A stretch of 64,000 nucleotides of DNA, taken from positions 65,078 through 129,077 of the forward strand of contig CAIMDG010000002.1 in assembly GCA_903839725.1 (NCBI GenBank). Direction: 5' to 3'. Below the pieces are notes generated by a model. It did no database searches. It saw nothing but the letters and a program-made list of their open reading frames with translations, and had not been told where the DNA came from. The position numbers and the translations under genes were made by a program. Origin of the DNA: an uncultured bacterium. Its GTDB lineage: Bacteria > Patescibacteriota > Minisyncoccia > Phycocordibacterales > PALSA-1337. Numbering within the stretch: position 1 is the first letter of the stretch; each line of letters starts with the position of its first letter. Below, in pieces: positions 920 through 57,518 of this stretch.

Positions 920-1611
920 TTAATATTTCTCCACCACTCTGAGACAGGAGCTTTCTCGATAACTTCGAGAACATATTCAACAGAATCTGTTATTTTGACC
1001 AATTCAAGATCATGAGGATCGATCGTATGATATTCAGCGAGCATTTTTTCTTGTAACATCTGCAAGAAACCATTCCAGAATTTTGAATCAAACAACACAA
1101 TCGGTACGCGAGGAATTTTCCCTGTCTGTATCAACGTAAGTACACTGAACAATTCATCAAATGTTCCAAATCCTCCTGGAAAAAATACATATGTCTCCGC
1201 AGCGAATGTCAGCATTGTTTTTCGAGAAAAGAAATAACTAAATTTCATTGAATCAGTTGCTGCACCATTGATATGGTGTTCGTGAGGCAAACTGATATTC
1301 AATCCAACTGACTGTCCATGAGCTTCTGCAGCACCTTTGTTGGCTGCTTCCATAACTCCAGGTCCTCCGCCGGTAATAACTGCATATTTCAATTCCTTGG
1401 CAATACGTGTACCGAGCTCATGTGCACTCTTATATGTCTGACTATCCGGAGCAACCAATGACGAACCGAATATCGTAACTGACTTTGGATATTTTCGTAC
1501 AAATGCAAAACCTTCTTTGAATTCTCTATTGATACGTTCGAGGTGTGTTTCAATTTCATCGCCGTGAATATCTCGTCGCGAAAAGAAGTGGGGATTTTTT
1601 TGATTGTTCAT
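916..1611 (-). CDS. LOG family protein (TIGR00730, cytokinin riboside 5'-monophosphate phosphoribohydrolase-like)
   Basis: 'GGGPGVMEAANKGA' and 'PGGFGTFDEL' LOG motifs. Start moved to internal Met (MNNQKN...) because the upstream part of the ORF only translates the palindromic repeat. Confidence 0.75.
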   Translation of the reverse strand: MNNQKNPHFFSRRDIHGDEIETHLERINREFKEGFAFVRKYPKSVTIFGSSLVAPDSQTYKSAHELGTRIAKELKYAVITGGGPGVMEAANKGAAEAHGQSVGLNISLPHEHHINGAATDSMKFSYFFSRKTMLTFAAETYVFFPGGFGTFDELFSVLTLIQTGKIPRVPIVLFDSKFWNGFLQMLQEKMLAEYHTIDPHDLELVKITDSVEYVLEVIEKAPVSEWWRNIN

Positions 1612-1650
1612 GGATTGATTATAACTGAGGAATGCATAATTTAAAACTAG

Positions 1651-3042
<1,392 letters not shown>

Positions 3043-3109
3043 AGCTCGTGATTAAGTATTTGACATATAAAATAATTAATGGCAATATGATTTAAAACAA
3101 TATTGCTCT

Positions 3110-3913
3110 TTGAATTTGAGCAAGGAAGGAAACATGCTAAGCAAAATTGCAGCTGATAATCTCAAAAAAGACGGAAAAGTTTTAGGTGAGAAATGGTTTC
3201 AGACTTACGGCGGTTGGTTCTCTGACCGTGAGAACATGCAAATATTTACCGATTCGATAATCCGTGGTTGTAGCCTCAGAGCTCAACATGATCTTGAAAT
3301 ATTATATGTAGGATCTGCTTCCGGCGAACTCGGCGAACAGTTTGTTCGTGCACTTGGTGGAGGCCATCTTACACTTGTTGATGTGGCCGAGGAACATCTT
3401 AAACTTAATACAAATCCAGCAACAACCAAATTGTGCATGGATGTCCTCGGAATGAATCTCAACAAAAAGTTTGACATTGTCATGATGCGGAGTTTCCTTG
3501 ATTACTTTCCCACAATGAATGAACAAATCGCAGTTCTTAAGGTAGTCAAAGAACACCTACGACCGGGCGGATTGTTTATTAATCAACCAGCATCTATTCC
3601 CACAGCGCACGCGCGAAATGTAATCAGTCGAGCATATTGTAGTGTGCCCAATATTGGCAAACGTTTATTTCAAAGCTGGGACATTGGACACTTATATGCA
3701 AGTGCAGGACTCGGTGGTGCCCCGTTTATATACGGAGATGGCAAAATTATGCGCATCACCGAACAAGATCACATCGCACGTTATGCCATTACACCTACTG
3801 ACATTGTTACCCTGCAGACAATATTAAAAGACGCCGAACGTTCAGTAGAGATAACAAAAAATGGTTACACCCTCTCGTTCGAATTCCCAATCCTTGCAAA
3901 GTTCGTCCAATAA
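3110..3913 (+). CDS. hypothetical protein, class I SAM-dependent methyltransferase-like fold
   Basis: 'ILYVGSASGELGEQ' (motif I-like), 'FDIVMMRSFLDYFP' and 'LRPGGLFINQ'. Alternative start at 3134. Confidence 0.4.
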   Translation: MNLSKEGNMLSKIAADNLKKDGKVLGEKWFQTYGGWFSDRENMQIFTDSIIRGCSLRAQHDLEILYVGSASGELGEQFVRALGGGHLTLVDVAEEHLKLNTNPATTKLCMDVLGMNLNKKFDIVMMRSFLDYFPTMNEQIAVLKVVKEHLRPGGLFINQPASIPTAHARNVISRAYCSVPNIGKRLFQSWDIGHLYASAGLGGAPFIYGDGKIMRITEQDHIARYAITPTDIVTLQTILKDAERSVEITKNGYTLSFEFPILAKFVQ

Positions 3914-3937
3914 CATTCACTTGATTATCCATACCCG

Positions 3938-3962
3938 CCAGTTGCTTGGCGGGGTTTTTATT
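3938..3962 (+). terminator. rho-independent terminator
   Basis: 'CCCGCCAGTTGCTTGGCGGGG' hairpin followed by a T-run. Confidence 0.55.
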
Positions 3963-4006
3963 TAATTATATGAGCCTTTTTGACTTCCTTGTGCTAGCAT
4001 GTCCCT

Positions 4007-5272
4007 ATGAAAGAAACAGCTGAGACCCTATACGACGTGGCCGTGATCGGTGGTGGACCCGCTGGCATGATGGCAGCTGGACGAGCAGCAGAGCGTGGCT
4101 TGAATGTTATCCTACTTGAAAAGAATACTTCTCTCGGCAAAAAGCTCCTCATCAGTGGTGGTGGAAGATGCAATCTCACCAACGCAGAGCCTGATGTACG
4201 CGCATTTCTCTCAAAATTCAAAGATGATGGTAAATTTCTTTTCTCTACATTTTCACAGCACAGTGTAAAAGACACACTCGAATTTTTCAGTAATCGATTC
4301 ATGGAAACAAAAGTCGAAGAAGGTAAACGTGTCTTCCCTGTCAGTGATTCTGCACAATCAGTATTCGACGTCCTCATTTCATACATGAAAGCAGGCAAAG
4401 TCACCGTACGCTCAAATGCTCCTGTTACCGGATTTATACAACACACAGACAAAACTATTACGGGTGTGCAACTCAAGAATGGTGAAGTTATCAAAGCCAA
4501 GAATTTTATTCTCGCAACTGGTGGTAAATCTCACCCTGAAACTGGTTCCACTGGCGAAGGATTCAACTGGCTCACTAAAATTGGCCATACTATTTCAGAA
4601 CCAAAGGCAGCATTGGTACCTATAGAAGTTCGTGATCAATGGGTCAAAGAGATTTCTGGTGTCTCAATACCAAATGCGAAAATTACCCTCTACCAAAATG
4701 GAGCGAAACAAGCAACAAAAAAAGGTAAAATTTTGTTCACACACTTTGGTCTATCAGGACCAGCCATACTCAACATGTCTTCAGAAGTCGAAGATCTCAT
4801 GAAGTATGGCGAAGTCGTTATCTCTCTCGACCTTCTTCCTGAACATGATTATGCAACCTTGAATGAAGCACTACAAAACCTATTCACAAAAGATAGTAAT
4901 AAGAAATTCAAGAACAGTATTGGTTCACTCATACCTACAGCATTCATTGACGTTGTTGTGCAGCGTTCTCTCATCAATCCCGAAACCCCCAACCACAGTA
5001 TCACTCGACAGGAACGTCTCGACTTGGTGAAACTTCTCAAGGACATGCATATTCACCCAACCAAGTTGCTCGGTGTCGACAAAGCAATCATTACCTCTGG
5101 TGGTGTTACATTGACTGAAGTTGATTTTAAAACGATGAAAAGTCTTGTCACACCTAACTTATATCTTATCGGTGATGTCTTGAATATAGATCGACCATCA
5201 GGTGGATATAGTCTACAAATTTGTTGGAGTACAGGATGGGTTGCCGGAAATGCTATTCCTATCTCAAAATAG
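4007..5272 (+). CDS. HI0933/BaiN-family NAD(P)/FAD-dependent oxidoreductase
   Basis: N-terminal 'YDVAVIGGGPAGMMAAGRAA' Rossmann motif and 'GGGRCNLTN', typical of the aminoacetone oxidase/HI0933 family. Confidence 0.8.
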   Translation: MKETAETLYDVAVIGGGPAGMMAAGRAAERGLNVILLEKNTSLGKKLLISGGGRCNLTNAEPDVRAFLSKFKDDGKFLFSTFSQHSVKDTLEFFSNRFMETKVEEGKRVFPVSDSAQSVFDVLISYMKAGKVTVRSNAPVTGFIQHTDKTITGVQLKNGEVIKAKNFILATGGKSHPETGSTGEGFNWLTKIGHTISEPKAALVPIEVRDQWVKEISGVSIPNAKITLYQNGAKQATKKGKILFTHFGLSGPAILNMSSEVEDLMKYGEVVISLDLLPEHDYATLNEALQNLFTKDSNKKFKNSIGSLIPTAFIDVVVQRSLINPETPNHSITRQERLDLVKLLKDMHIHPTKLLGVDKAIITSGGVTLTEVDFKTMKSLVTPNLYLIGDVLNIDRPSGGYSLQICWSTGWVAGNAIPISK

Positions 5273-5411
5273 GTCCATCTATCGCTCTCAAACGAGTGTA
5301 TAAACCAGTTGACACAAGTGTTCTGCAGTAGTACTATTCTCAACTGAACGCCATCCATATGTTTGGATGTCTAGGTTTGCAGAGCACAAAACAATCGAAC
5401 ACTGAACGACA

Positions 5412-5762
5412 ATGAAAAAAAATAAAGGGACGAGCATCCCTGCAGTAGGACCAGAAATTCTGGCCCATAAAACCGCAACAAGTCCGCTGCGCCGGAAGAT
5501 TGAAGAGGAAATCCTCGAAATCCAACGGAGCAACGACACTCAAGTCCACCATTTGAAGCTCCGGTATCGTAACCGGAACATCATGGTCAAGATCACCCGT
5601 TCCATCCCACTGTTCATTGTGGATGCGAAACGCGAAATTTTTCTCATCATTATCCGCACGGCCCAGAAAATATCCAACGGCTGTGGGAAATTGGTGGAGG
5701 TTGTCCGCACCTTCAAGGCCCGCGAAATCGCGCGTCTGACCATGGTTGCGACGGCCGCCTGA
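5412..5762 (+). CDS. hypothetical small protein (GC-rich singleton)
   Basis: ORF in a locally GC-rich segment, followed by a strong + strand terminator at 5783-5817. No recognisable motif. Confidence 0.35.
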   Translation: MKKNKGTSIPAVGPEILAHKTATSPLRRKIEEEILEIQRSNDTQVHHLKLRYRNRNIMVKITRSIPLFIVDAKREIFLIIIRTAQKISNGCGKLVEVVRTFKAREIARLTMVATAA

Positions 5763-5782
5763 AAATACCTTTTGAACAACAC

Positions 5783-5817
5783 CCGCCAGCGCAAATGCAC
5801 TGGCGGACTTCTTTTTA
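5783..5817 (+). terminator. rho-independent terminator
   Basis: 'CCGCCAGCGCAAATGCACTGGCGG' hairpin followed by 'ACTTCTTTTT'. Confidence 0.6.
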
Positions 5818-5819
5818 TA

Positions 5820-7787
5820 CTAATATGGATCCTCTTCCACCTCTTTCTTTGTATCTACTTTTTCAGCACTAGAAGTCTTTTTGATATATCCCAGCAATAC
5901 GCGTGCCAAACGAATATCTCTAAATGAAACACTTGCTCCAACCTTATTTTTTACTGGAGAAAGTAATGGTGGTTTATCGTCTTGCTGAGCAAGTGAGACG
6001 GTCTCCAAAGCTTTTTCAATTTTACCAAAATGCTGTGGCGAAATTTCATATTTGAGATACGCGATGTCTGATTGCATGAGATGCTCTGTAGGATCTGATC
6101 CATCAGTAGCTATGAGATATTCGAGGTGATATATAATAGTTTCAATGACCATGTCACGCGCCTCAGCCATCTCTTTGAGATTTTTCTGTGAACGAACAAG
6201 ATTGGCAGTACGAGCAAATGTTGAGATCTTAACTGGCTTTTCTTTTTTGATACGTTTGCGTGTGGTCTTACCTGTCTTCGGATCCACATACGAGTGCATC
6301 GGTGCAACTTTACCCAAAAATGATTCATGCGCACGGATAATTTCTTTTTCATCTGTATGAGTAATGATACTTTCTGCTTTTGCAGATAATTCACGAAGAT
6401 GGTGATCGTATTCGAGCACTTCATGATTGACCTTGAGTGCATGTTGATTGAGTCCGAGAATTCGTAGGCCAGCTAACGTACGTACGCGAGACAATGCCAC
6501 ATACCCCATACCAGGCTCGAATGAACGAGACAGGTCGACTTCTATTGCATCCAAACTCATTCCCTGACTCTTGTGGACGGTGATAGCCCACGCAAGGCGT
6601 AGCGGATACTGATGTATTTCCGCCAAGACTTTACCATCATCTTCTATCTGCCACGTTGCTAATTCGATGGTTAACAATCTACCATCTGGAAAATCAGGTG
6701 TTGCCGCGGTTCGAATAACTGGATCAACTCCATATCCGCAGGAAATGATGACGCCGAGCGTTCCATTCACGTATCCTTTTTCAAAATTGTTTTTGACACA
6801 CATCACGCGTGCACCTTTTTTCAAGCGTAACTTTTCAGGTGCTAAACAGGTTTTTTTAAGAGTTTCAACGAGCGGTTTTCGTCCTCGAGAAGTCATTTCG
6901 TAGACGCATTCGTATGCCTTGACTTTACCGAGTTCACGATCGTTCACGGTGTCGACATCGATATTGTGAGTGTAGAGGCGGGTGGGTTCGATGAGGGTTT
7001 CTTCAATATTGAGATCAATTATTTCTTCAGTGTCGTCAGAGGTAACAACACCGTCGCCTCTCGAGCCGTACAATATGTCTTCGTTCTGCAAAGTCGACAT
7101 ATTGTCCAGCTCTGCAGCGACGGCTGACGTTAACTGAGAAGACGCCAGCTTGGAAACTTCTTTTTTAAACCGGCCTCTCAATAGCTCCTGGGAACGCTCG
7201 GAAACTTCTCCTGAACGGATCTCATTTAAAATAGAGAGTGAGACATCGTCACCTTGTCGATAATTTTCTGAGAGGTAACACACAGCAAATTTACCTTGTT
7301 TCCACGAATCAGCATGATAGATGAATTGTGGTCGCTGTTCACCCATTCTCGACACTGGCGGTAATTGAAAGAAGTCGCCACATAATATCATTTGTATTCC
7401 ACCAAATGGTTCGGATGATTTACGAACGCGTTTGAGCACTTGATCAACGAGGTCAAGTCGGAAATGGTGAAGCATTGAAACTTCGTCGATAATCAATACT
7501 TGAGCTTCTTCTATTTTCTTACGTACACTCGCCTTTTGACTGATAGCTTCAACGTCATCCTCTGAAAGATAGTCTTTGATACCAATTCCTGACCATGAAT
7601 GAATAGTCACTCCACCCATATGAGTCGCAGCAATACCGGTAGATGCGGTGATACCTATAGGAACCTCGTGATCTTTCAAATATCTGATGTACTGATTGAC
7701 TACGAATGTCTTACCAGATCCTGCGGGGCCTGTAATGAAGACATTTTGTCCAGCTTTAAGAATATTCAGTGCATCTTTCTGAGTCAT
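5820..7787 (-). CDS. PIF1/RecD-like ATP-dependent DNA helicase with ~200-aa C-terminal extension
   Basis: Walker A 'GPAGSGKTF' and Walker B 'IIDEVSM'. AAA_30/PIF1-like motifs through ~aa 430, then a C-terminal domain of unknown function. Confidence 0.75.
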   Translation of the reverse strand: MTQKDALNILKAGQNVFITGPAGSGKTFVVNQYIRYLKDHEVPIGITASTGIAATHMGGVTIHSWSGIGIKDYLSEDDVEAISQKASVRKKIEEAQVLIIDEVSMLHHFRLDLVDQVLKRVRKSSEPFGGIQMILCGDFFQLPPVSRMGEQRPQFIYHADSWKQGKFAVCYLSENYRQGDDVSLSILNEIRSGEVSERSQELLRGRFKKEVSKLASSQLTSAVAAELDNMSTLQNEDILYGSRGDGVVTSDDTEEIIDLNIEETLIEPTRLYTHNIDVDTVNDRELGKVKAYECVYEMTSRGRKPLVETLKKTCLAPEKLRLKKGARVMCVKNNFEKGYVNGTLGVIISCGYGVDPVIRTAATPDFPDGRLLTIELATWQIEDDGKVLAEIHQYPLRLAWAITVHKSQGMSLDAIEVDLSRSFEPGMGYVALSRVRTLAGLRILGLNQHALKVNHEVLEYDHHLRELSAKAESIITHTDEKEIIRAHESFLGKVAPMHSYVDPKTGKTTRKRIKKEKPVKISTFARTANLVRSQKNLKEMAEARDMVIETIIYHLEYLIATDGSDPTEHLMQSDIAYLKYEISPQHFGKIEKALETVSLAQQDDKPPLLSPVKNKVGASVSFRDIRLARVLLGYIKKTSSAEKVDTKKEVEEDPY

Positions 7788-7965
7788 GGAGAGATTTTAC
7801 ACTACTTCTCAATAATCACCGCAAAAAATACGTGTACAAGCTGTTGATTGTATTACTCCATACAAAATACATACCATCAACTGCACCAAACTATTCTTCT
7901 CAAACGTAGTTATAGTAGTCGAATGATTATAAGATATTAATGAATATAACCTACACAATTAACCT

Positions 7966-8586: not shown

Positions 8587-8715
8587 CACGTCGTAGAGGA
8601 GGGGGTGCCATATTCATTTTTTGTACAAGTTTGTAAACACTGTGGTACGCGATGTAATGTAAGTGTTTCTAAACTTGTACAAAAAATGAATATGGCACCC
8701 CCTCCTCTACGCGTG
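8587..8715. repeat. Family-1 ~125-bp palindromic intergenic element, copy 1 (inverted orientation relative to copies 2 and 3)
   Basis: ~45-bp near-perfect inverted arms '...GGAGGGGGTGCCATATTCATTTTTTGTACAAGTTT' around a ~38-bp non-palindromic core. The core's reverse complement matches the cores at 48105-48142 and 53566-53602. Confidence 0.8.
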
Positions 8716-8773: not shown

Positions 8774-9823
8774 ATGGAAAAATTCGCCCCACGATCAAAT
8801 TCTAAGTTTGTCCCAAAATTTGTGCGCAACTCGCACAAGAAGAGTTTTGGCAAAAAAGTCTTTAGTACCAGCATTCCTGGCACATCAGCAACCTCATCAC
8901 GACCAGCTCGTCCTGCAGGAAGTGCATTCAAACCTTTCAATAAAGCAGGTGGTTCATTCAAGCCATATAACAAAGACAAAGCACCATTCAAAGCTGAAAA
9001 TAAGGAGGCGGGCTCATTCAAGCCGACCAATTTCAAAAGTGGCCCCAAGAAATTTGGCCGACAACCTAGACCTGCTCGTATCAAAACAAAAGCACCAGGT
9101 CCATCCCCTATTCCCACTGCTGATCCATATGCATTCCCTATGCGCATCAACAAATATCTTGCATTCAAAGGATTCGCAACACGTCGCGGTGCCGATGAAT
9201 TGATCACCAAAAGACGTGTCACTATCAATGGTAGTTATGCAGTACTCGGTGATCGTGTTGAAGAGTCGGATGTCGTTGAAGTCAACAATCACAAAAAGAT
9301 AGAGTCGTATGTTTATTACGCCTACAATAAACCAAGTGGCATTTCTACCGATGAAACACGCAAAGGTACGCCAAGTATTGCTCAGTCTATTTCTCTCCGT
9401 GGAGTATTTTCTGTAGGACACCTCGACACCAAAGCAAATGGCCTCATGATACTCACCAACGATCGCCGTGTTTCAAGTCGCCTTTTTAACAATGGACATG
9501 AACATGACGCTGAATATGTCATCCGTTCAATTACTCCATTCCGTAATAATTTCAAAGAAAAGATGGCTGAGGGAGTACATATCGGTGGACATGTCGTCGC
9601 TCGTGCTTCAGTCAAAATAGAAGATCCTCATCTTTGCTCGCTCATTACCACTGATGCAGGAAACCACATCCGCCAGATGTGTGCGACACTTTTCGCTGAA
9701 ATCGAACAACTTACTCGTACTCGTATTTTGAATATTAAGCTTGATCGTTTGCAATCAAATGCATTTCGTAAAATTGAAGATGATGAATTGAAGGAATTCC
9801 TCGAAGCTCTCGGTTTGCAATAA
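8774..9823 (+). CDS. RsuA/RluB-family rRNA pseudouridine synthase with Lys/Pro-rich N-terminal extension
   Basis: S4 domain 'INKYLAFKGFATRRGADELI' and catalytic region 'GHLDTKANGLMILTND'. A ~120-aa basic low-complexity N-terminus. Confidence 0.7.
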   Translation: MEKFAPRSNSKFVPKFVRNSHKKSFGKKVFSTSIPGTSATSSRPARPAGSAFKPFNKAGGSFKPYNKDKAPFKAENKEAGSFKPTNFKSGPKKFGRQPRPARIKTKAPGPSPIPTADPYAFPMRINKYLAFKGFATRRGADELITKRRVTINGSYAVLGDRVEESDVVEVNNHKKIESYVYYAYNKPSGISTDETRKGTPSIAQSISLRGVFSVGHLDTKANGLMILTNDRRVSSRLFNNGHEHDAEYVIRSITPFRNNFKEKMAEGVHIGGHVVARASVKIEDPHLCSLITTDAGNHIRQMCATLFAEIEQLTRTRILNIKLDRLQSNAFRKIEDDELKEFLEALGLQ

Positions 9824-9851
9824 AAAATACCCTACTCTGGGGTATTCCAAG

Positions 9852-9881
9852 AAAAAGGGCCTGTCGTGAGACGGGCCCTTT
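9852..9881 (-). terminator. rho-independent terminator for the minus-strand gene at 9900-10766
   Basis: 'GGGCC-TGTCGTGAGACG-GGCCC' hairpin with a T-run on the minus strand. Confidence 0.5.
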
Positions 9882-9899
9882 GCGATATGAACGCAAGGT

Positions 9900-10766
9900 T
9901 CAATTGTAAATGCGGAACTTGCCCGCGTCGCCTTCGACCCCGGTCTGCACAGCGAGCATTTCGACTGGGGTGAGGTCGTAGGTTGCAAGTAACCACACAA
10001 TGCCGCGCTTGACGCCGACGACCAAAGGATCGGCCGGGGCAATCGAAACAATAGCATTACGTTGCCACCGTGGCGCATTGGCGATGATAAATACATCATC
10101 GAACAGCTTCTGCTTGGCGCGAATATGGTCGCGAACTGCTTGAGGCATGACGCCTTCATAGCGAGCCGTGATCCAGACGGAATCGAGACGTTGCTCTTCA
10201 CATTCCAGCTGAAACGAACTGACAAGCAGATCGTCAACGAGATGCAATTTGAGCACATCTGGCAATTCTGGTTCAACCTGCATGCTACGTGCCACCGGAT
10301 CCAAAATCGGAACCGTTCGGGCAGTGAAGATATTGCCGGCGAACTGAAGGCCACTCTTGAAGGTGATACGGCAGATCGGCGAATTGATGTTATAGACCGA
10401 GAATGCAGGATACGTTGAATGGGTCTTCCACGACAAGAATTGTGGATTGATTGTCGGGAAGCCGAGAGATGGAGTCAATTCGCGAATGTCCAATTCGTTG
10501 CAGATATTTTTGTGACGCTGCAACAACGAAGTTCTCAGAGATTCCTCGACAGGCAATGTGTCCTGAAGTTTGCCGAAGATCGCATCGCGCTGCATAACGA
10601 GACGCTCGATGCTTTCGGGACTTAGTTCACGTTCGGTCATGAACCGTGCTTGCGTTGCCGCAAGAGGGACAGCGAGTTCTGGTCTGAGTCCTTCGGGCCA
10701 CATGCCCAAAACGAGACGCTCATGCAAAAGACGCGGAATGAGTAACGATGGTGTTTGATTTGTCAT
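9900..10766 (-). CDS. hypothetical protein (GC-rich singleton)
   Basis: Long ORF with visibly higher GC than surrounding genes. No recognisable motif. Start set at internal Met 'MTNQTPSLL'. Confidence 0.4.
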   Translation of the reverse strand: MTNQTPSLLIPRLLHERLVLGMWPEGLRPELAVPLAATQARFMTERELSPESIERLVMQRDAIFGKLQDTLPVEESLRTSLLQRHKNICNELDIRELTPSLGFPTINPQFLSWKTHSTYPAFSVYNINSPICRITFKSGLQFAGNIFTARTVPILDPVARSMQVEPELPDVLKLHLVDDLLVSSFQLECEEQRLDSVWITARYEGVMPQAVRDHIRAKQKLFDDVFIIANAPRWQRNAIVSIAPADPLVVGVKRGIVWLLATYDLTPVEMLAVQTGVEGDAGKFRIYN

Positions 10767-10958
10767 GGTGTTACTTCTCCCTTCTTTACAGAGTCTGACA
10801 ACCGGAATGATTGTAAGGCCTGTATTTACTATAATTTTACTCCTCTCAATTTTGTAAAGCCACTCAAAAGGGTGATAACTTTTATCACTAGCTACCCATC
10901 CTCGGCGCACTTCGGAAAGTTGTGCTGCACGGGGGCAAATCTCTCCTTGCTACAATAA

Positions 10959-11210
10959 CTAACCTAGTAGACGTATTTTCTCTTCTCGACTCATCCTCTT
11001 TAACTCACCTTCTCGGGCGCGAACTTTTGAATAAGTCTTATGCTTTTCTGAATATTTCAAAACAACTGGTCTTCTGATTTTTGTGTAGTGCGCACCAGAC
11101 TTCAAATGATTGTGTGCGTGCAAACGTTTCTCAAGGTCGGTAGTAGAACCGACATATAGAGTGGTGTCGGCACATTCGAGAATATATACGTAATAGATTA
11201 TTTTTTTCAT
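10959..11210 (-). CDS. GIY-YIG nuclease family protein (UPF0213/YhbQ-like)
   Basis: '[29 protein letters not shown]' is a GIY-YIG motif. 83 aa. Confidence 0.7.
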
Positions 11211-11211
11211 A

Positions 11212-11634
11212 TTATCCGAGCTTCATACGACGAGCCTGAACATTCAAAGCTTGTCCATTGGGAATTACGCGTTCAACTAATTTCCAGAATGATTCCCCAT
11301 GATGAAGTTCTTTGAGGTGGCACAATTCATGCACAATAATATAATCACGCAATTCTGGAGATAATGTGAGAATGCGATAATTGAAATTAAGATTTTTCTT
11401 TGACGAACAACTTCCCCATCGTCCACGTTGATTGCGAATGCTGACACGATTGTATTTCATGCTCTGTCCCAAAATCGGATCAAGTTTGGTATATTCAGCA
11501 ACAAAATGTGTGAGTCGTTCCATCACAAGTACCCGAGCTGATTCACGATGCAACAAATATTCTTTACGGCCAGACGGCTTGCGTCTGACACGTTGAGTTC
11601 GACGGATTCTTCGGAAGAAAATACGATACGGCAT
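11212..11634 (-). CDS. DUF45/YgjP-family zinc metallopeptidase-like protein (SprT-like HExxH)
   Basis: '[41 protein letters not shown]' is the YgjP/M48-like signature. 1-nt gap to the GIY-YIG gene downstream. Confidence 0.75.
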
Positions 11635-11713
11635 AGAGCGATTATAGCAAATTTTTCTTTAGCTACACCTCGAATATTTCCCAAAATACTCGTTTGACGC
11701 ACACCTACCCTAA

Positions 11714-12286
11714 GTGGTACATTATCAGCCGACCTGTAGTTATTTTGTAACAAACCACAACGCAACGAACCAAAGGAATCATATGCCCAAAATTGTAACG
11801 GCAGTTGGAATGATGGACTCATCACTTGGCCTCAAATATATTCTCGAGCGCAATGGGGATACGAATTTGTTAACCAATATCCTTACTCAACTCTTGGAAC
11901 ATTCGCAGACCGAAGCCACGGAAGCGATCGCACACATCCTCGCCCACACCAGATTGTTTGGGAAACCTCTCGTTAAACTTGCGGAGAAACACCGCTTTGC
12001 ACAATCTGCCGCTGGCGGCGCCACTGCCAAGGCAACGGTATGGCCTGAAGGGCTCGCGGAACATGACATCCAGCTTTTGGAATCCGTTCCGGAATTGTGT
12101 TACGACGAATCATTGTTTCGCGCCGTTTGCACAGAAATGGAACGTGCCGAACAAGCTGATCTGTGGCTTGACCACATCACCAGCCCAAATACACCGATGA
12201 GCGCGGTGTTGAAAGTTGTTCCCCATCCCTTCCGGCCGATGTTTGCCCAGAAATACGTTGAGCAATTCAAACGAGCGTTTGTCTAA
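11714..12286 (+). CDS. hypothetical protein (GC-rich singleton)
   Basis: ORF with elevated GC, ending at a strong bidirectional terminator. No recognisable motif. Confidence 0.4.
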   Translation: MVHYQPTCSYFVTNHNATNQRNHMPKIVTAVGMMDSSLGLKYILERNGDTNLLTNILTQLLEHSQTEATEAIAHILAHTRLFGKPLVKLAEKHRFAQSAAGGATAKATVWPEGLAEHDIQLLESVPELCYDESLFRAVCTEMERAEQADLWLDHITSPNTPMSAVLKVVPHPFRPMFAQKYVEQFKRAFV

Positions 12287-12300
12287 CCCGTTTTCACACA

Positions 12301-12340
12301 AAAAAACCCGTTTTCTGTGTGAAAACGGGTTTTTGTTTTA
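12301..12340. terminator. bidirectional rho-independent terminator
   Basis: 'AAAAAAACCCGTTTTC-TGTGTG-AAAACGGGTTTTTGTTTT' between convergent genes. Confidence 0.7.
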
Positions 12341-12887: not shown

Positions 12888-14471
12888 CTATTTCCCCAAA
12901 TCCAACACCTCATCAATCCTAATCTGCTTCACAAACTCCGGCACGTGACTTACCACAATCATCGCACCCTCATACTGATCAAGAGCCTTGGCAATGACCG
13001 GCAAATGTCTAAAGTTAATATGGTTCGTCGGCTCATCGAGAATAAGTAACCCTGGACGTTGCAATACCAAACGAGCAAAAGCTACAAGACCCTTCTGCCC
13101 TTCTGAGAGTGACGCAATCTTGGTATGGATGGTATCAGCGGTGATGAGGAAACTTGCAGCGACTGCACGAAGTTCAGTTTCGATGAGGCGTCCTTCGACT
13201 GAGCGAATCACTTTTTCGAGACTTTGGTAAACAGTGTCATTGAAATCCATCATTGAAAAATCTTGACGATAGTACCCAACACGAATGCCTGGAGCAATCG
13301 AGACTTCAGCATTGACCAGTGAATGGTGATTGCCATCAGTGATCACACCAGCGTGGCGAGCGATCGATTCAAGCAACGTACTTTTTCCAATACCATTCGG
13401 ACCAGAGAGAAGCAGGTGCTGTTTCTTTCGTAGAGAAATCTTCGCCTTGTGAGTCGTCGGTTTATGCGTCTTAGGATTCATGATCGAATACGACGAAATA
13501 CCCATGACTTCACCGATGAGGTCAGGCTGTGATGGTATCGTAAATGACTTGATCGTACGATCTTCCTTACGCACATCAACAATCTCCTCTTCCATCTCCT
13601 CAGCCTTCTCACGCATACGCTTTGCCACCAGACGCATCTGACCTCCTTTGTTGGCGAAGACATTGGCCTGATCTTTATTGGCTTGAATCTGTTTTGCCAA
13701 CTGAGCATTCTTCATATTTTCTTTTTCGATACGCGCACTAATCTGATCCACCACATCAGCATAGTCACCAACATACTGTTCAACTTTCTTGGTATACACA
13801 TCGAGATACAAGACACCGTGTGTGAAGGCATTCAAGAATTCAGCATCGTGAGAAATAACCAAACAGGTCTTCTTATAATTCACCAAGAAATCCGTGAGGT
13901 GTTCAATTCCAGCCTTGTCGAGATTGTTCGTAGGTTCATCGAGCAACAAAATATCAGGGTCTTGAATGAGTGCTGACGCCAAAAGTAATCGTGCTTGCTG
14001 ACCACCAGAAAATGTTTTCACCAAACGATCTTTGATATCGATAGGATGTCCGTCTTTGCCACCAGTACCCTTTTTCCCAATATGTAAATTAACCACATCC
14101 AACACCTCATCGATACGAGGATCAAGATCGTATATTTTTTCCTTGAATGAGGTCGCGAAAAATTCACGTACAGTGAGATCGAGCTGATCACGTGGAATAA
14201 CCTGACGACTGGTTGCAACAGTTGCACCATTGGTAACAAATATTTCACCTGATTCAGGCTTCCATGTCTCATATCCTGCTGCCCCGAGAATCAAACCGAA
14301 AATAGTAGTTTTACCCGCACCATTTTGACCCATGATGGTAACCTTGGTACCACGACGAACCGTGAATGAAACCTCGTCGAGAATAGGCTTATTATGTCCC
14401 CATTCAAAAGTAACTTCATCAAAACGGATGATAGTATCGCCAGAAAACGCTGTTTTAGGATTATGTGCCAT
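12888..14471 (-). CDS. ABC-F family ATPase (tandem ABC domains, EttA/Uup-like)
   Basis: Two Walker A motifs ('GQNGAGKTT', 'GPNGIGKST') and two signature motifs ('LSGGQQ', 'LSEGQK'). Inter-domain linker and no TM segments. Confidence 0.85.
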   Translation of the reverse strand: MAHNPKTAFSGDTIIRFDEVTFEWGHNKPILDEVSFTVRRGTKVTIMGQNGAGKTTIFGLILGAAGYETWKPESGEIFVTNGATVATSRQVIPRDQLDLTVREFFATSFKEKIYDLDPRIDEVLDVVNLHIGKKGTGGKDGHPIDIKDRLVKTFSGGQQARLLLASALIQDPDILLLDEPTNNLDKAGIEHLTDFLVNYKKTCLVISHDAEFLNAFTHGVLYLDVYTKKVEQYVGDYADVVDQISARIEKENMKNAQLAKQIQANKDQANVFANKGGQMRLVAKRMREKAEEMEEEIVDVRKEDRTIKSFTIPSQPDLIGEVMGISSYSIMNPKTHKPTTHKAKISLRKKQHLLLSGPNGIGKSTLLESIARHAGVITDGNHHSLVNAEVSIAPGIRVGYYRQDFSMMDFNDTVYQSLEKVIRSVEGRLIETELRAVAASFLITADTIHTKIASLSEGQKGLVAFARLVLQRPGLLILDEPTNHINFRHLPVIAKALDQYEGAMIVVSHVPEFVKQIRIDEVLDLGK

Positions 14472-14943: not shown

Positions 14944-15431
14944 AATCAGAACCTTTTTCTAGGTTATTCAATACGTACATAAAAAGACTGTAATATCTAT
15001 TCCGGTCTTTTTGCATACACACATCACTATATAAAAAGCAAAACCCAGACAGAAGTCTGGGTGTAAGAACGTGAGAGGGACAAAAGAGCAAAGAATGAAC
15101 AAAGTGATGAAAGAGCAAAAGGTAGTGAGAAAGAGAAATGAGAGAGGTGGAGGTGAATGATGTCGGGGCTAAAAGCGGCTGAGGGTACTTGGGATTGAAA
15201 AGTCAAAGGAAAGCCGACATATTCACATACCTATCTGATTTCTTTACTCACTTTCAACGTTCTTACACAAGTATTATATACCCAAAAAATACAAAAGTCA
15301 ATACCCTTCCGATATGATATTCACAGTACACACACCCAAAGAATGGACACAATCACATAAGCGTGTTAGGATATATCCTCACAGTTCTTTGCTTGGTACG
15401 AGCTACCAAGCCACAACCCAATAAACAAAAC

Positions 15432-15875
15432 ATGAGCACAATGAGCAACGGAAGTAACGAAGACCTGAAAAAACTGATAGAAGAAACGTTTGGGAAATAC
15501 CCATTCAACTTCAAAACACCCGAGAGCGACGTCAGCTTCAACCTCCAGCGTCCAGATCCGGATAAACCTGGCAACTGGCTGGTAACGCAGCATTTCGTCG
15601 GCGGGCCAGTCGTAAATCCTTGGGCGCGTCGTACAGAAAGAACGCCGCCGAAGTATATTTCAATGTCCGAGGACAAAATCCTCGATGCGAATGCGGCGCA
15701 TAAAGCCCAGTGGACAATCAATAAGATGGACACTATTGGCGTATTACCTGGCGGCAGACAATCGCAAAGAAGCCGAACTACCCAGCGCATTATCCGCAAA
15801 AAAGGCAGTCTCGCTCGTTTGCGACTGCTCATGCATCTCGACGAAAATCCGGGCCAGCTCCCCGATATGGTATAG
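15432..15875 (+). CDS. hypothetical protein (GC-rich singleton)
   Basis: + strand ORF followed by a + oriented terminator at 15895-15921. A fully overlapping minus-strand ORF was rejected. No motif. Confidence 0.35.
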   Translation: MSTMSNGSNEDLKKLIEETFGKYPFNFKTPESDVSFNLQRPDPDKPGNWLVTQHFVGGPVVNPWARRTERTPPKYISMSEDKILDANAAHKAQWTINKMDTIGVLPGGRQSQRSRTTQRIIRKKGSLARLRLLMHLDENPGQLPDMV

Positions 15876-15894: not shown

Positions 15895-15921
15895 GCCAGA
15901 CCTCACCGTCTGGCATTTTTG
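15895..15921 (+). terminator. rho-independent terminator
   Basis: 'GCCAGAC-CTCACC-GTCTGGC' followed by 'ATTTTTG'. Confidence 0.55.
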
Positions 15922-16560: not shown

Positions 16561-16578
16561 AATCTAAGTATAGCATGA

Positions 16579-16720
16579 CGAATCACAGCGGGTATGCAGT
16601 ATGTGACAGTCGAAACATCCGTGACGAACTAATATGAATGTCTGAAGAACACAATAATGTAACGATATCCCGCTGGGAATTGTTTCGACTGTCACATACT
16701 GCATACCCGCTGTGATTTCG
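16579..16720. repeat. Family-2 element copy A: conserved ~63-nt core flanked by perfect 39-bp copy-specific inverted repeats
   Basis: Arms 16579-16617 and 16681-16720 are exact reverse complements. The core '...ATATGAATGTCTGAAGAACACAATAATGTAACGATATCCCGCTGGGAAT' is homologous to the core at 35608-35679. Confidence 0.8.
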
Positions 16721-16840
16721 TAAGGTGCAGGTGAGAAGATTTTGAGGGACGTTTCGGAGCGAGTAAAGACGAGCGAGAACCAGCCGCGGAGCCAGCAGGC
16801 TCCGACGGCGTGTCCCGAGAAAATTCTCACCCGCACCTTA
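16721..16840. other. GC-rich structured element (17-bp inverted repeat enclosing an ~86-nt GC-rich segment with an internal hairpin)
   Basis: 'TAAGGTGCAGGTGAGAA' ... 'TTCTCACCCGCACCTTA' with one mismatch. Internal 'CGGAGCC-AGCA-GGCTCCG'. Confidence 0.4.
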
Positions 16841-16856
16841 CGGAACTCAAAAAATA

Positions 16857-18873: not shown

Positions 18874-19731
18874 TTGAAAATGAGCCATACTATGAACAAA
18901 TCATTGCTACTTGGCGGTTTACTTACGACGGTTGCGCATGCTGGTATTGGAGATACCGATGCTCTGAGAAATTTGTTTCCGGCTGACTATCCCTTTCAGT
19001 CACTCGAAAAACCTCCGGTATACAAAACGTTATTGGCCAAATTTGTAAAAGAATTTGGCAGGCCGGACACATTCATCAACAACATGGGAAGTCCTTCCCT
19101 ATTCGACCGCGCGGTATCTTTCCAGCAAGCCAACTACAACGATGTCACCTGGATCAATGACAAAGGTCAGCGATCATTCGGCGACGCTGCTGGTTACGGT
19201 ATCCGCGAAGCTGCTGTCAGTTATTTCCCCGTTAAAGAATTCGAATCAGATATCCAGGATATCGGTTCACGATTTACACACGTTGTGATCGGCGACACGG
19301 CTGAGGAACAGCGCCTTATGGTAAGTGCTATCCCAAATGCTTCCGAATATTCGTGGATGAAACAGGCTCGTGAAGACGGTGCGTATAATTACAATCTACG
19401 CCCATTCAATTCAAGCCCATATCTACATGGATATATGAAAGTCGGACACTTTGCCGGGCAATCACTTGCAACAGTATCTGGCCGGTGGTATTACGATCTA
19501 CGCCACAGCAAAGATCACATGAGTTTTGAAACGATTTTCAATATGCAACACAACTACGGCTTTCAGGTTGGTGCATCATTTGATCCTTTCAACTTCAATG
19601 CAAGCGATACGACTTCGTGTTCAATGCGCTTACAGCACTTCGGACAGAATGGCATATTCAAATCATGGTCTATCGGTGTTGTGCAAAACAGCCAAACAAC
19701 TCTGGTCGCTCAACTTGGTTGGTTTTGGTAA
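18874..19731 (+). CDS. secreted hypothetical protein
   Basis: Signal peptide 'MNKSLLLGGLLTTVAHAG'. Moderately elevated GC. Confidence 0.4.
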   Translation: MKMSHTMNKSLLLGGLLTTVAHAGIGDTDALRNLFPADYPFQSLEKPPVYKTLLAKFVKEFGRPDTFINNMGSPSLFDRAVSFQQANYNDVTWINDKGQRSFGDAAGYGIREAAVSYFPVKEFESDIQDIGSRFTHVVIGDTAEEQRLMVSAIPNASEYSWMKQAREDGAYNYNLRPFNSSPYLHGYMKVGHFAGQSLATVSGRWYYDLRHSKDHMSFETIFNMQHNYGFQVGASFDPFNFNASDTTSCSMRLQHFGQNGIFKSWSIGVVQNSQTTLVAQLGWFW

Positions 19732-28490: not shown

Positions 28491-29045
28491 ATGACTGCGC
28501 AATTAAAGAACCGACCCAAAGTCGGCATCCTGCTTGTAACCAACGGCAAAAATGGCGACTACGTGGCACACCTGCAAATGAGGGGTGTCCATGATTATCG
28601 CAAGGACTGCCCCCAAACATGGCCCGGGACTTACCAAGTCACCGTCGAAGGCAAGAAACATCAAGGCGAAAGCAATCTTGAAGCCTTACGCCGCGAACTG
28701 CGCGAAGAACTTCAACAGTCTGCAGGAGAATTTGTTCTCAAAATGTTGGTAGGTGATGGTCTCAAAAATGATTCAATCCTGCTACACGAAGAAGATATCA
28801 TCATTTACCAATTATTGGTGCCGAGCGATCTCTTCAAGAACTACGGTATTTACCTCGAAAACATTACCGGCGGACTTCGCCCAATCACCCGCGAAGATGT
28901 CATCGGAATTCGCTTGGTTCGTCCGGAGTGGCGCACGATAATCCACCCCTACAGCCAGAACACCATTATCGTGAAGCCTCACGTCAAAAAGGCACTCGAA
29001 ATACTCTTCAAAAGATACCCGAAGCCTGGCAAGAAAAAGAAGTAA
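28491..29045 (+). CDS. divergent Nudix-like hydrolase (GC-rich singleton)
   Basis: 'GESNLEALRRELREELQ' fits the Nudix E-x7-REUxEE pattern. Higher local GC and its own terminator. Confidence 0.45.
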   Translation: MTAQLKNRPKVGILLVTNGKNGDYVAHLQMRGVHDYRKDCPQTWPGTYQVTVEGKKHQGESNLEALRRELREELQQSAGEFVLKMLVGDGLKNDSILLHEEDIIIYQLLVPSDLFKNYGIYLENITGGLRPITREDVIGIRLVRPEWRTIIHPYSQNTIIVKPHVKKALEILFKRYPKPGKKKK

Positions 29046-29061
29046 CCACTTCCCCACGCAA

Positions 29062-29090
29062 ACGCCGCGAGCAATTCGCGGCGTTTTTTA
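29062..29090 (+). terminator. rho-independent terminator
   Basis: 'ACGCCGCGA-GCAAT-TCGCGGCGT' followed by 'TTTTTT'. Confidence 0.7.
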
Positions 29091-31273: not shown

Positions 31274-31310
31274 AAAAAAACCACCTACGCAACTGTGCGT
31301 AGGTGGTGGA
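31274..31310 (-). terminator. rho-independent terminator for the gene at 31334-31672
   Basis: 'CCACCTACGCA-ACTG-TGCGTAGGTGG' preceded by an A-run (a T-run on the minus strand). Confidence 0.6.
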
Positions 31311-31333: not shown

Positions 31334-31672
31334 TTAAACGCCGGGCACCCCGGGTGTAACCATGACCACCTTTTCTGATGGAGCAGGTTTGAACCAGTAA
31401 CTGAAGAACGCGTAGGATAAAAGCCAGATCGCCAAGCCTTCGCCGAGAGCAATGGCCAATCGCATCAAGATGATCACCGAATCCTTCGCTCCCGTGACGA
31501 AATAATTAACGACGGGTGAATCGTATTCAGTGATGGGATGTTTCAGAAGGAGCGGCCCGCCGATGTAATAATCACCAGGGGCTGTATCAAAACCGAAGTT
31601 GAAGCAAAACATAATGACGGTCGTAATAAGTCCAAAGAACAGACTGAGCGACATGACGAGTGGCTTTTTCAT
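31334..31672 (-). CDS. small membrane protein of unknown function
   Basis: Three predicted TM helices. Confidence 0.35.
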   Translation of the reverse strand: MKKPLVMSLSLFFGLITTVIMFCFNFGFDTAPGDYYIGGPLLLKHPITEYDSPVVNYFVTGAKDSVIILMRLAIALGEGLAIWLLSYAFFSYWFKPAPSEKVVMVTPGVPGV

Positions 31673-35558: not shown

Positions 35559-35580
35559 AAATAGATTATATAACAAAAAG

Positions 35581-35706
35581 AACACCCTCGCATGTGTATT
35601 GGTCCGCAACTCCGTGGTTATTTTAAAATATGTGTCTAAAGAAAAATGTAATGAAATAATATCCAGCTGGGAATATTACGGACCAATACACATGCGAGGG
35701 TGTTCT
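35581..35706. repeat. Family-2 element copy B: conserved core flanked by perfect 27-bp copy-specific inverted repeats
   Basis: Arms 'GAACACCCTCGCATGTGTATTGGTCCG' / 'CGGACCAATACACATGCGAGGGTGTTC'. The core '...ATATGTGTCTAAAGAAAAATGTAATGAAATAATATCCAGCTGGGAAT' matches the copy A core. Confidence 0.8.
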
Positions 35707-37501: not shown

Positions 37502-37547
37502 GTTGAAGATTGTAACAGCGAGAAGGAGGAAGGGCAAGAAGGGGGAG

Positions 37548-37642
37548 CGATGCAAATTACGAATGAACGCGAATGACGCGAATACATCGCGTCCGGATGC
37601 GACGTATTCGCGTCATTCGCATACATTTGCGGATTTGCATCG
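37548..37642. repeat. P-family palindrome copy 3 (38-bp arms, 19-bp spacer) between ligA stop and gatC start
   Basis: Left 'CGATGCAAATTACGAATGAACGCGAATGACGCGAATAC'. Right 'TATTCGCGTCATTCGCATACATTTGCGGATTTGCATCG'. Confidence 0.75.
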
Positions 37643-37658
37643 GCACCCCTTCTTGCCA

Positions 37659-39749
<2,091 letters not shown>

Positions 39750-43938: not shown

Positions 43939-44654
43939 GGATAGAATTATATCACAGTTGTTTTGACAAGGCCTACCCTTGTCGATTAAGTATATTACCC
44001 TGAACTCGAATTGTTCCTACATAATCCATGAAGCTTGAATATACATATCTTATTGAACATTCGAACGCTTCAACCGGATACTCTCTTCGTGCGTCTTTGG
44101 TCATATCTGGTTCATCAATACCGTATGGATTCAAGTGAATATATTGAATCAAGTATCTAAAATAATTATCATCACTAACATGTTTTGATTTGTATTGCCC
44201 TTGAAATATGGTCCCTGAATGATCATATTTGTGGTTAAAGTATGTCGAATAACTCGTACATATTTTATGTATAAATGTATATATACCATTCTCTACTTTC
44301 TCTTTTAATGCTAGATGGAAATGGTTTGGCATTAAACAGTATGCTTTTATGTCGACAAGGGTAGACCTTGTAAACAAAAACATATGATTTGGTTTCAATT
44401 TTTTAAAATCTAACTTATGAGTATCATTGGCAGCATATAATAAACACATAAAACGTTCATAATCACTCGTATCAAGAAATATAGGTGCTTTGTGAGCCCC
44501 TCGGTTATACACATGGTAGTATTCATTAATTATATGCATAAGTAATTCAACAGGGCGACAAAGTCTACCCTTGTTTAATTACAATATCACTAACGTATGA
44601 AGATTCTGTGAAAAAAGAATCAAAATTGAATGAAGAACAAGGGTAGGCCTTGTT
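43899..44654. repeat. Cluster of five REP-like 18-bp hairpin repeats around the RAYT gene
   Basis: Copies at 43899-43916, 43965-43983, 44354-44371 (inverted), 44557-44574 and 44637-44654 (inverted). Consensus 'GACAAGG(T/C)CTACCCTTGT' with stem ACAAGG/CCTTGT. Confidence 0.75.
43973..44539 (-). mobile_element. IS200/IS605-family Y1 transposase, REP-associated (RAYT-like)
   Basis: 'YHVYNRG' N-terminal motif, HuH 'MPNHFHLAL' and C-terminal Tyr region 'YLIQYIHLNPYG'. Flanked on both sides by REP hairpins. AT-rich. Confidence 0.7.
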
Positions 44655-44707: not shown

Positions 44708-45202
44708 CTATATACAAGCACCGTTATTCTGAACAGTAGCATCGATAGCAGTCTTGCCAGATATATTCTTAGCATTACCACTACTATCAACACAGTAAGA
44801 ACCTGAAGCATCTGGGAGAATTACTGATGCAGACCACTTTCCAGCAGCAGTAGCGACATCAGCTGAACAGGTTACCTTTTCTGCAGCTACACTAATATTT
44901 GAGTTGATACCAGTGACAATATTAGTTACTCCACTTGTACTAAATACTGATCCTGTATTACATGCAGCAGTTGTACCAAAGCCTGTTGCTACAAGAATAC
45001 CATAATCTCCTCCATTTGCTGCCAATTCGACTGCACTGCGCAAACTACTCATTTGAGCCTTTGTAGCAGCCGCTTTACCCTTACTTCGTGCTGTTCCCAA
45101 CGAAACCAACACAACTGAACTCAAAATACCAATGATGGCAATAACGACGAGCAATTCGATAAGAGTGAAACCTCCTTCTTTGTTATGTAAATTCTTTTTC
45201 AT
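44708..45202 (-). CDS. pilA: type IV pilin (probable major pilin)
   Basis: 'GGFTLIELLVVIAIIGILSSVV' class III signal sequence. A 164-aa mature domain with C-terminal Cys pair. Confidence 0.75.
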   Translation of the reverse strand: MKKNLHNKEGGFTLIELLVVIAIIGILSSVVLVSLGTARSKGKAAATKAQMSSLRSAVELAANGGDYGILVATGFGTTAACNTGSVFSTSGVTNIVTGINSNISVAAEKVTCSADVATAAGKWSASVILPDASGSYCVDSSGNAKNISGKTAIDATVQNNGACI

Positions 45203-48007: not shown

Positions 48008-48060
48008 GAATATATTATACAGGAGAAATCGTGGTGACGTTATCCACATTACATAGTATC

Positions 48061-48186: not shown

Positions 48187-48224
48187 TCACCAATATAACG
48201 TCACTACCATTTCTTAATTTCCTA

Positions 48225-57515: not shown

Positions 57516-57518
57516 GTG

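Follow-up and report, generated by a model that had tools for sequence, protein, structure and literature searches.

Flexible genomic islands and islets of the "replacement" type have reportedly been described by Rodriguez-Valera and colleagues in marine and freshwater bacteria. Phage morons, as Hendrix and colleagues are said to have defined them, are additional genes that lie between conserved ones, carry a promoter and a terminator of their own and deviate in GC content. For acquired genes of atypical composition, Lawrence and Ochman are said to have proposed an amelioration model in 1997. Here we compare with these systems seven small GC-rich genes in a stretch of 64,000 nucleotides, hereafter the window, from an uncultured bacterium of the Patescibacteriota (assembly GCA_903839725.1, contig CAIMDG010000002.1, positions 65,078 to 129,077). 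These genes are probably flexible slot genes of freshwater Paceibacteria that are exchanged within Patescibacteria and do not originate from a host.

The slot genes resemble replacement islets in their fixed position between core genes, in an occupant that differs or is absent among close relatives, in a sharp break of DNA identity at the borders (seen between the related loci L121 and L123), in their atypical composition and in exchange that is mostly within the phylum. They differ in that each islet is a single small gene with its own terminator and not a multi-gene cluster, in that no glycosylation or surface-structure theme is evident among them, and in that replacement is seen directly only in relatives and not in the window's own species. 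With phage morons they have in common the promoter-gene-terminator build, the deviant GC and the insertion between genes that abut in relatives, but the backbone is here a cellular chromosome (RluB, ABC-F, RF, FtsEX, CTP synthase) and no prophage.

The amelioration model is matched by the deviation in codon usage and in GC content at third codon positions (GC3) and by the patchy distribution of the genes, whereas the persistence of this deviation at orthologous positions across lineages with saturated synonymous sites does not fit it. Because one transfer cannot yield such persistence, amelioration alone is insufficient. Integron cassettes are likewise promoter-less or small units of a single open reading frame (ORF); many have no known function, and a structured element lies on the 3' side of the ORF. 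Unlike them, the window cassettes are scattered over 55 kb and not arrayed, have no attC-like sequence in common in their 3' flanks, and end in hairpins with the T-runs typical of intrinsic terminators. No IntI integrase was noted among the Pfam-scanned gene products, which cover only part of the window. The GC-rich slot genes are a known kind of phenomenon and reveal no new mechanism.

Composition and termination of seven small genes

The window has a GC content of 41.4% and a median gene GC3 of about 0.33. Our gene set comprised 69 genes, defined as greedy non-overlapping ORFs across the window; a false ORF over a tRNA-Ser (58204-58479) was dropped from it. For each gene, the GC3 of synonymous codons (GC3s) was compared with the value that its amino acid content and the codon usage of the remaining genes would predict, with a background standard deviation of z of 1.8. 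Seven small genes stand out (GC 0.465-0.518, GC3 0.46-0.62, z 4.0-8.2; Table 1). An earlier note, made by eye from the sequence, had singled out six of them as visibly richer in GC than the background. All six are outliers at z 4.0-8.2, outside the normal GC and codon distribution of the window, but the list had missed a seventh gene (112 amino acids, aa) with a z of 5.4. Other top outliers are the conserved ABC-F gene (12888-14471; z 4.7, with a GC3s of only 0.41), the non-gene ORF 16564-16836 and a secreted-protein gene (18874-19731; z 4.1).

The excess lies mainly in C-ending codons and extends across all codon family types. The C fraction in NNY boxes is 0.49 in the seven genes versus 0.29 in the others, and at 4-fold sites C reaches 0.36 versus 0.15 and G 0.23 versus 0.14, while the G fraction in NNR boxes is unaltered (0.34 versus 0.33). 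Among the encoded amino acids, Pro and Arg are modestly up and Ile, Lys, Phe and Tyr modestly down. The relative synonymous codon usage of the seven genes correlates at r = 0.24 with that of resident genes and at 0.6-0.7 with that of Paceibacteria loci of 45-55% GC. Six of the seven had no match in Pfam, NCBIfam, PHROGs or PADLOC, in line with the earlier impression that most cannot be annotated, and the same six had no tblastn match to phage or plasmid records. On the minority + strand, where the earlier note had placed several of the genes, their excess is only a trend: four of the seven lie on it, compared with 13 of 61 other genes (p=0.06).

Every one of the seven genes ends in a strong terminator, defined as a hairpin with dG <= -12.7 kcal/mol followed by a T-run and at most 60 nt from the stop codon, compared with 8 of 61 other genes (Fisher p=7e-6). 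The difference persists among genes closing a transcription unit (7/7 versus 8/40; p=1e-4). The strong terminators had been noted earlier, and for four genes the hairpin is indeed private, as was also proposed; the other three hairpins are bidirectional and common to a convergent neighbor, namely those after the 116-aa gene (with the Pif1 helicase gene), the 167-aa gene (with MliC) and the 288-aa gene (with the RluB-like gene). Promoter-like sites lie 5' of positions 5412, 10766, 11783, 15432 and 28491, but are not enriched over shuffles.

The genes surrounding the GC-rich set are housekeeping and small-genome genes. They encode TGT, Pif1 helicase, an RluB-like pseudouridine synthase, ABC-F, a P-type ATPase and NDH-2, and further along CTP synthase, FtsEX, RF, GatCA, DNA ligase, a type IV pilus cluster, TyrRS and RecG. 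Lake-metagenome contigs (ENA "BUCK21" scaffolds among others, up to 378 kb long) carry exact copies of the window proteins, and the nearest GTDB species representatives are uncultured Paceibacteria/Parcubacteria (Patescibacteria). The RluB-like protein is 87% identical to that of L007 (CAIUOX010000011), and its next relatives are 56-60% identical. L007 is a syntenic sister species with core protein identities of 71-92% (median about 87%); L087 is a closer relative, in which the flanks of the 288-aa gene are 85-94% identical in protein. Seven window genes are missing from L007, among them the 288-aa and 147-aa genes. Across 1-24.3 kb, the median GC3s is 0.41 for genes that L007 lacks or has only in highly diverged form, versus 0.31 for conserved genes (Mann-Whitney p=0.014).

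Several simpler origins of the GC-rich genes were considered and rejected. A strand effect was dismissed because many + strand genes have a normal GC3 and strand cannot alter base-pair GC. Translational selection was dismissed on the basis of the major pilin gene (44708-45202), which has the strongest terminator and a GC3s of only 0.23. A structured-RNA origin was set aside, as Rfam recovers only tRNAs and the ORFs have protein homologues. A phage or prophage origin was rejected for want of any PHROG, phage-record or viral-contig match, and a plasmid origin for want of any tblastn match to plasmid records. Among known defense systems, PADLOC returned only a Nudix-box match to the 184-aa gene and a generic methyltransferase match (3110-3913).

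Cassette replacement at the NUDIX-like slot

The only GC-rich gene with a family match is the 184-aa gene between FtsX and CTP synthase. PF00293 matches it weakly, at 26.1 bits (cutoff 21.1) and over model positions 2-60 of 134 only, and the PADLOC match is confined to the Nudix box (E=7.5e-4). In the translation, the Nudix box (GX5EX7REUXEEXGU) reads G54-KKHQG-E60-SNLEALR-R68-E-L-R-E-E-L-Q, with the catalytic REUXEE core kept and the final G changed to Q. With most of the box kept, the product is a tentative candidate for a NUDIX-like hydrolase.

A set of 48 related metagenome loci keeps the RF-FtsE-FtsX-CTP synthase backbone. Eight of these carry the NUDIX-like gene, always in the gap between FtsX and CTP synthase and in the same orientation, on the opposite strand. 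Its GC3 is 0.43-0.50 in the related loci whether the core GC3 is 0.30 or 0.54, and it is elevated in five low-GC lineages. Between the window and L106, core 4-fold sites are near saturation (38% identical versus 30% for random sites), and the GC content at 4-fold sites (GC4) of the NUDIX-like gene is 0.63 in the window and 0.55 in L106, against core values of 0.30 and 0.29.

A clear case of exchange is the pair L121 and L123. Their DNA is 97% identical over 2153-5018 and 5710-7638, with FtsX 100% and CTP synthase 99% identical in protein, whereas the NUDIX-like cassettes between these flanks (about 690 bp) have no DNA similarity, only 25% amino acid identity, and a sharp break at their borders. 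The slot has been replaced cleanly between these two strains. The window allele shares 58-61% identity with its counterparts in L106 and L121, although the cores are no more than about 69-78% identical. This slot thus exchanges its alleles between lineages, and the window's own cassettes may have arrived by the same route.

The 9.85-12.3 kb stretch and the 288-aa protein family

In this stretch, the RluB-like gene (+, ending at 9823) is followed by two tandem terminators, the 288-aa gene, a 190-nt upstream region, a GIY-YIG gene and a YgjP-like/DUF45 gene; beyond these lie a promoter region, the 167-aa gene (+), a bidirectional terminator and MliC (-). The earlier note had linked the GIY-YIG/DUF45 pair to the GC-rich stretch. 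The pair is present, but it is native core and unrelated to the islets. It has a native composition (GC3 0.34-0.37) and is conserved across relatives (L007, L008, L010 and L087), and the two genes stay adjacent in L007, L008 and L087. The GIY-YIG protein is 75-91% identical in L007 and L087 and occurs in 20 related loci, and the YgjP-like/DUF45 protein is 79-85% identical in the same two genomes.

In L007, just a few bases and no hairpin separate the RluB-like gene from the GIY-YIG gene. The module of about 1.1 kb, composed of the terminators, the 288-aa gene and the promoter region, is an indel between the window species and L007. L087 has the gene at the same site with 57% amino acid identity and a GC3 of 0.56, versus 0.29-0.45 in its flanks. 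The 4-fold sites of the gene are 46% identical between the window and L087 (28% random), close to the 44% of the flanks (27% random), while its dN of 0.36 exceeds the 0.03-0.15 of the flanks. The tandem terminators, the distal T-run of which overlaps the RluB-like stop codon, are kept in L087 and absent in L007. The leader block at 10820-10879 is identical to L087 at 56 of 60 nt (93%), above every nearby coding block, and the palindrome that adjoins the -35 element of the 288-aa gene is a possible operator. Just upstream of the promoter in L087 (1345-1510) lies a GC-rich element of about 150 nt with 24-bp perfect terminal inverted repeats (CCACCCTTGCGCAACAAGGCTTTC...); the window retains only its left part, at about 10900-10958, and the element has no Rfam match.

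A word-index protein search under-reports relatives of the 288-aa protein, as it returned only two matches (the protein itself and the L087 orthologue), compared with 585 cluster representatives, mostly of about 250 aa and 19 of them below 1e-30, in an exhaustive profile search. Named members of the family are all labeled "hypothetical protein [Patescibacteria group bacterium]". Three members seen in context lie among housekeeping genes of small genomes, at positions unrelated to one another: one adjoins SecA on a contig of 857 kb, another UvrB, and the third a Mur ligase and a RuvA-like ORF. In a relative of 54% GC the homologue has a native composition, with a GC3 of 0.67 among neighbors of 0.62-0.76. 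The family has no Pfam domain and no sequence relative in the PDB. AlphaFold2 gave a pLDDT of 32 with an alignment of two sequences and of 86 (pTM 0.82) with 50 family members. The latter model has a helical N-terminal part and an alpha/beta C-terminal part, and Foldseek found no match to it in the PDB or BFVD. P120, D246-P247 and E269 are invariant in the family, which, judging from the predicted model, may have an undescribed fold or domain combination.

On contig F69R9YU2, which encodes an identical 288-aa protein, genes for an ABC-transporter permease and ATPase (TOBE) lie upstream of MliC where the window has ABC-F. The difference represents structural variation, either within the species or close to it.

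Upstream of YgjP, the slot is occupied by the 167-aa gene in the window, by a homologue of the same length and 52% identity in L007 (11599-12168; GC3 0.42 versus about 0.30 in its neighbors), and by a different, weakly formyltransferase-like gene in L087 (GC3 0.58). The word-index search with the window gene found only itself, which is weak evidence since this search under-reports.

The remaining GC-rich genes

The 116-aa gene has a positional homologue in L007 (7450-7845, 131 aa), which is 38% identical over 61 aa and has a GC3 of 0.49. The 147-aa gene carries a long antisense ORF. For the 112-aa gene no homologue was found in 80 related loci, nor in the 48 that keep the RF-FtsE-FtsX-CTP synthase backbone; RF and FtsE are 12-45 nt apart in most of the related loci inspected.

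Probable exchange within Patescibacteria and its alternatives

The reading that we favor is that core genes form a conserved backbone in which one-gene modules, each with its own promoter and intrinsic terminator, occupy particular gaps, usually at the ends of transcription units, and that recombination through the conserved flanks adds, removes and exchanges these modules. Since the window encodes a type IV pilus cluster (39.8-52.8 kb), the modules probably travel by DNA uptake. The donors, transformation as the mechanism and any function of the cassettes can be put forward only conditionally. The exchange pool would consist of other Patescibacteria, with GC3 from 0.18 to 0.83, so that slot genes would look GC-rich in a recipient of 41% GC and AT-rich in a relative of 54% GC. 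The core GC3 of related Paceibacteria spans this same range, and donors of higher GC therefore exist inside the group. Most slot genes would lack recognizable relatives because they evolve and turn over much faster than the backbone.

Piecemeal horizontal acquisition, as the earlier note had put it, holds in outline and agrees with the variable presence, non-core status and foreign codon usage of the genes, but its suggested source has no support. Capture of each gene, once, from a higher-GC host or neighbor outside the Candidate Phyla Radiation (CPR), with slow amelioration toward 41% GC, appears quite unlikely to us. The atypical composition and codon usage and the absence of several genes from L007 would suit it. 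The figures for the 288-aa gene can also be reconciled with it: after the window and L087 split, each lineage turned over about half of its 4-fold sites, such that a GC4 of about 0.8-0.85 at the split would yield today's 0.57 and 0.63. Yet no homologue outside Patescibacteria was found for any of the genes, the 288-aa family is Patescibacteria-only as far as sampled, and there is no phage or plasmid match. For the NUDIX-like gene, a single old transfer is contradicted, because uniform amelioration from the GC4 values in the window and L106 demands an impossible ancestral GC4 above 1; its elevated GC3 also recurs in the five low-GC lineages. The Patescibacteria-specific 288-aa family agrees with a survey in which horizontally transferred single genes in Patescibacteria were described and most of those detected had moved between Patescibacteria (PMC12455944).

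The genes are not simply singletons either, since four of the seven have GC3-elevated positional homologues elsewhere (in L007 for the 116-aa and 167-aa genes, in L087 at 1628-2494 for the 288-aa gene, and in L106, L121, L111 and L123 for the NUDIX-like gene). To this extent, orthologues of similar composition do exist in other species. They would be expected if the genes were native and vertically inherited, with a gene-specific force, either GC-biased gene conversion at recombination-prone loci or selection on synonymous sites, keeping GC3 high; we consider this unlikely. All of these homologues are GC3-elevated despite saturated synonymous divergence, and the 288-aa gene has co-diverged with its flanks. 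However, genes are missing from close relatives, the unrelated NUDIX-slot alleles in 97%-identical strains amount to exchange, and high expression is not linked to GC3, as the pilin gene illustrates. Moreover, small gap genes of high-GC relatives deviate the opposite way and are AT-richer than the core (GC3 0.39 for L126 2728-3018 and 0.36 for L090 5116-5712, versus about 0.7), as expected of a shared mid-GC pool but not of a force that raises GC.

An artifact, in the form of mis-binned or chimeric assembly pieces or of spurious ORFs in non-coding DNA, is very improbable. Some ORFs of the window do invite it: 16564-16836 (GC3 0.54) is no gene and lies inside a 296-nt double-hairpin spacer, 58204-58479 runs over a tRNA, and the 147-aa gene has no homologue besides its long antisense ORF. 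But at least 18 contigs, assembled independently from several samples, share the same gene arrangement, the same junctions recur in the different species L087, dN/dS is about 0.14-0.2 between the 288-aa, 167-aa and NUDIX-like genes and their full-length homologues, and the 288-aa protein yields a confident predicted fold.

Exchange within Patescibacteria nevertheless meets several points that weigh against it. A donor was found for none of the seven genes. The 13 contigs of the window's own species have an identical arrangement, with no turnover and no presence/absence of the 288-aa gene among them. The borders are marked by no integrase, no direct repeats and no common flank motif (no k-mer of at least 10 nt is shared among flanks). 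The lack of homologues is weak evidence for four orphans, as no exhaustive profile search stands behind it, and the 288-aa protein shares no more than 37-44% identity with its nearest outside relative. The simplest reading of the 288-aa module in the window and L087 is vertical descent with fast protein evolution since the split and no recent swap, because 4-fold divergence equals that of the flanks and the promoter and terminators are conserved.

A further reading seems doubtful: that fixed one-gene slots in the core backbone of Paceibacteria hold fast-turnover cassettes with a GC3 of about 0.45-0.6 whatever the GC3 of the host genome (0.3-0.7), even across saturated synonymous divergence. 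If true, it would imply either a phylum-wide cassette pool, with transformation faster than amelioration, or locus-specific maintenance of GC, for example by biased gene conversion. Several cassettes, including the 288-aa family, could then be strain-level interaction or defense functions under frequency-dependent selection.

Two points merit attention, the mid-range GC3 that persists at slots across saturated divergence and the uncharacterized fold family of the 288-aa protein. The genomes of Patescibacteria are tiny and streamlined, the ways in which they gain strain-level variation are poorly described, and the window is a clean, quantified example. For annotation, the combination of GC3 outlier and terminator marks flexible genes; for curation of metagenome-assembled genomes, GC-rich genes of this sort are not contamination. 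They also help to choose candidate genes for interaction with hosts or phages.

Table 1. Positions of the seven GC-rich genes and of associated or neighboring features in the window.
Feature	Coordinates	Strand	GC	GC3s	z	Remarks
116-aa GC-rich orphan gene	5412-5762	+	0.513	0.62	7.2	No family match; highest GC3s of the set
288-aa GC-rich gene	9900-10766	-	0.518	0.55	8.2	Expected GC3s 0.33; uncharacterized family, so far Patescibacteria only
167-aa GC-rich orphan gene	11783-12286	+	0.504	0.52	5.2	No family match
147-aa GC-rich orphan gene	15432-15875	+	0.507	0.54	6.0	Absent from L007 along with neighboring DoxX gene
184-aa NUDIX-like GC-rich gene	28491-29045	+	0.481	0.55	6.7	FtsX/CTP synthase gap
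112-aa GC-rich gene, small membrane-protein-like	31334-31672	-	0.487	0.57	5.4	RF/FtsE gap; missing from the earlier list
191-aa moderately GC-rich orphan gene	59452-60027	-	0.465	0.46	4.0	Between HhH-GPD glycosylase and RecG genes; weakest of the seven
Terminator of 116-aa gene	5782-5816					Common to convergent Pif1 helicase gene
Two tandem hairpin and T-run terminators	9822-9879	-				3' of 288-aa gene; dG -19.1
Bidirectional terminator	12300-12339					14-bp stem; for 167-aa gene (+) and MliC (-)
Terminator of 147-aa gene	15895-15920
Terminator of NUDIX-like gene	29061-29089
Terminator of 112-aa gene	31274-31306					dG -21.3
Terminator of 191-aa gene	59401-59434
Putative promoter/leader of 288-aa gene	10817-10886	-				TTTACA...AATTAT site (10858-10831) and palindrome GATAAAAGTTATC
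GIY-YIG gene, 83 aa	10959-11210	-				GC3 0.37; PF01541, E=3e-15, 56.7 bits (cutoff 22.6)
YgjP-like/DUF45 metallopeptidase-fold gene, 140 aa	11212-11634	-				GC3 0.34; PF01863, E=1e-29, 104.5 bits (cutoff 26)
Inverted repeats	1663-1767, 8592-8711, 16581-16845, 35579-35706, 37527-37663, 48046-48201, 53523-53646

Repeats, RNAs and other variable genes

Near-perfect inverted repeats with arms of 22-67 nt, 85-100% complementary, are found between genes of the window. They belong to at least two sequence families, one with the core TTTTTGTACAAGTTT (at 8592 and 53523) and one with ACGCGAATGACGCGAATA (at 1663, 37179 and 37560), and have no match in Rfam; they look like miniature inverted-repeat transposable elements (MITEs) or repetitive extragenic palindromic (REP) elements. 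The spacer between the SOUL and P-type ATPase genes (16561-16856; 296 nt, GC 0.50) consists of two hairpins with perfect stems of 22 and 37 bp (RNA fold -147.9 kcal/mol, z=-15), and because of these long hairpins the ORF 16564-16836 is no gene. In L007, the spacer is absent and the gap measures 50 nt.

An IS200-like Y1 transposase gene (43973-44539, -; PF01797, GC 0.32) is inserted in the type IV pilus/pilin cluster. Short hairpins with ACAAGGGTAGACCTTGT in common lie on either side of it (43958-43985/44352-44379 and 44558-44575/44636-44653), and the transposase could move the palindromic repeats.

The secreted-protein gene at 18874-19731 (+; 279-283 aa, GC3 0.42-0.45) is absent from L007, and its product has a signal-peptide-like N-terminus, ends in ...AQLGWFW and has no family or PDB match. 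This aromatic C-terminus is reminiscent of an outer-membrane beta-barrel, and a protein of that kind would be unusual in a Patescibacterium. Also absent from L007 is a SAM-methyltransferase-like gene with its own terminator (3110-3913, +); its PADLOC match to "mad2" (E=4e-10) probably reflects generic methyltransferase-domain similarity. ARAGORN predicts a tRNA-Ile(TAT) at 62495-62568 and, at 57518-57605, a tRNA-Ser whose anticodon (ACT) is unusual, beside a normal tRNA-Ser(GCT) at 58225-58314. No tRNA adjoins any of the seven GC-rich genes, whose flanking genes are housekeeping genes.

In a related locus, L009, an AT-rich block of large ORFs (1521-7816) lies next to the same backbone, with a GC3 of 0.26-0.36 versus 0.45-0.49 in the core. 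The block illustrates that foreign DNA of low GC also occurs in this clade, and from the first residues of the translations we would guess that it encodes a candidate type I restriction-modification system. Finally, a sigma-70-like promoter with 11 of 12 consensus positions (TTGACT-17-TATAAT, 15301-15273) and a hairpin and T-run terminator (15062-15043) enclose about 210 nt of C/U-rich sequence on the - strand of the window. This region (15043-15301) is absent from L007, contains no convincing ORF and is a candidate small RNA.

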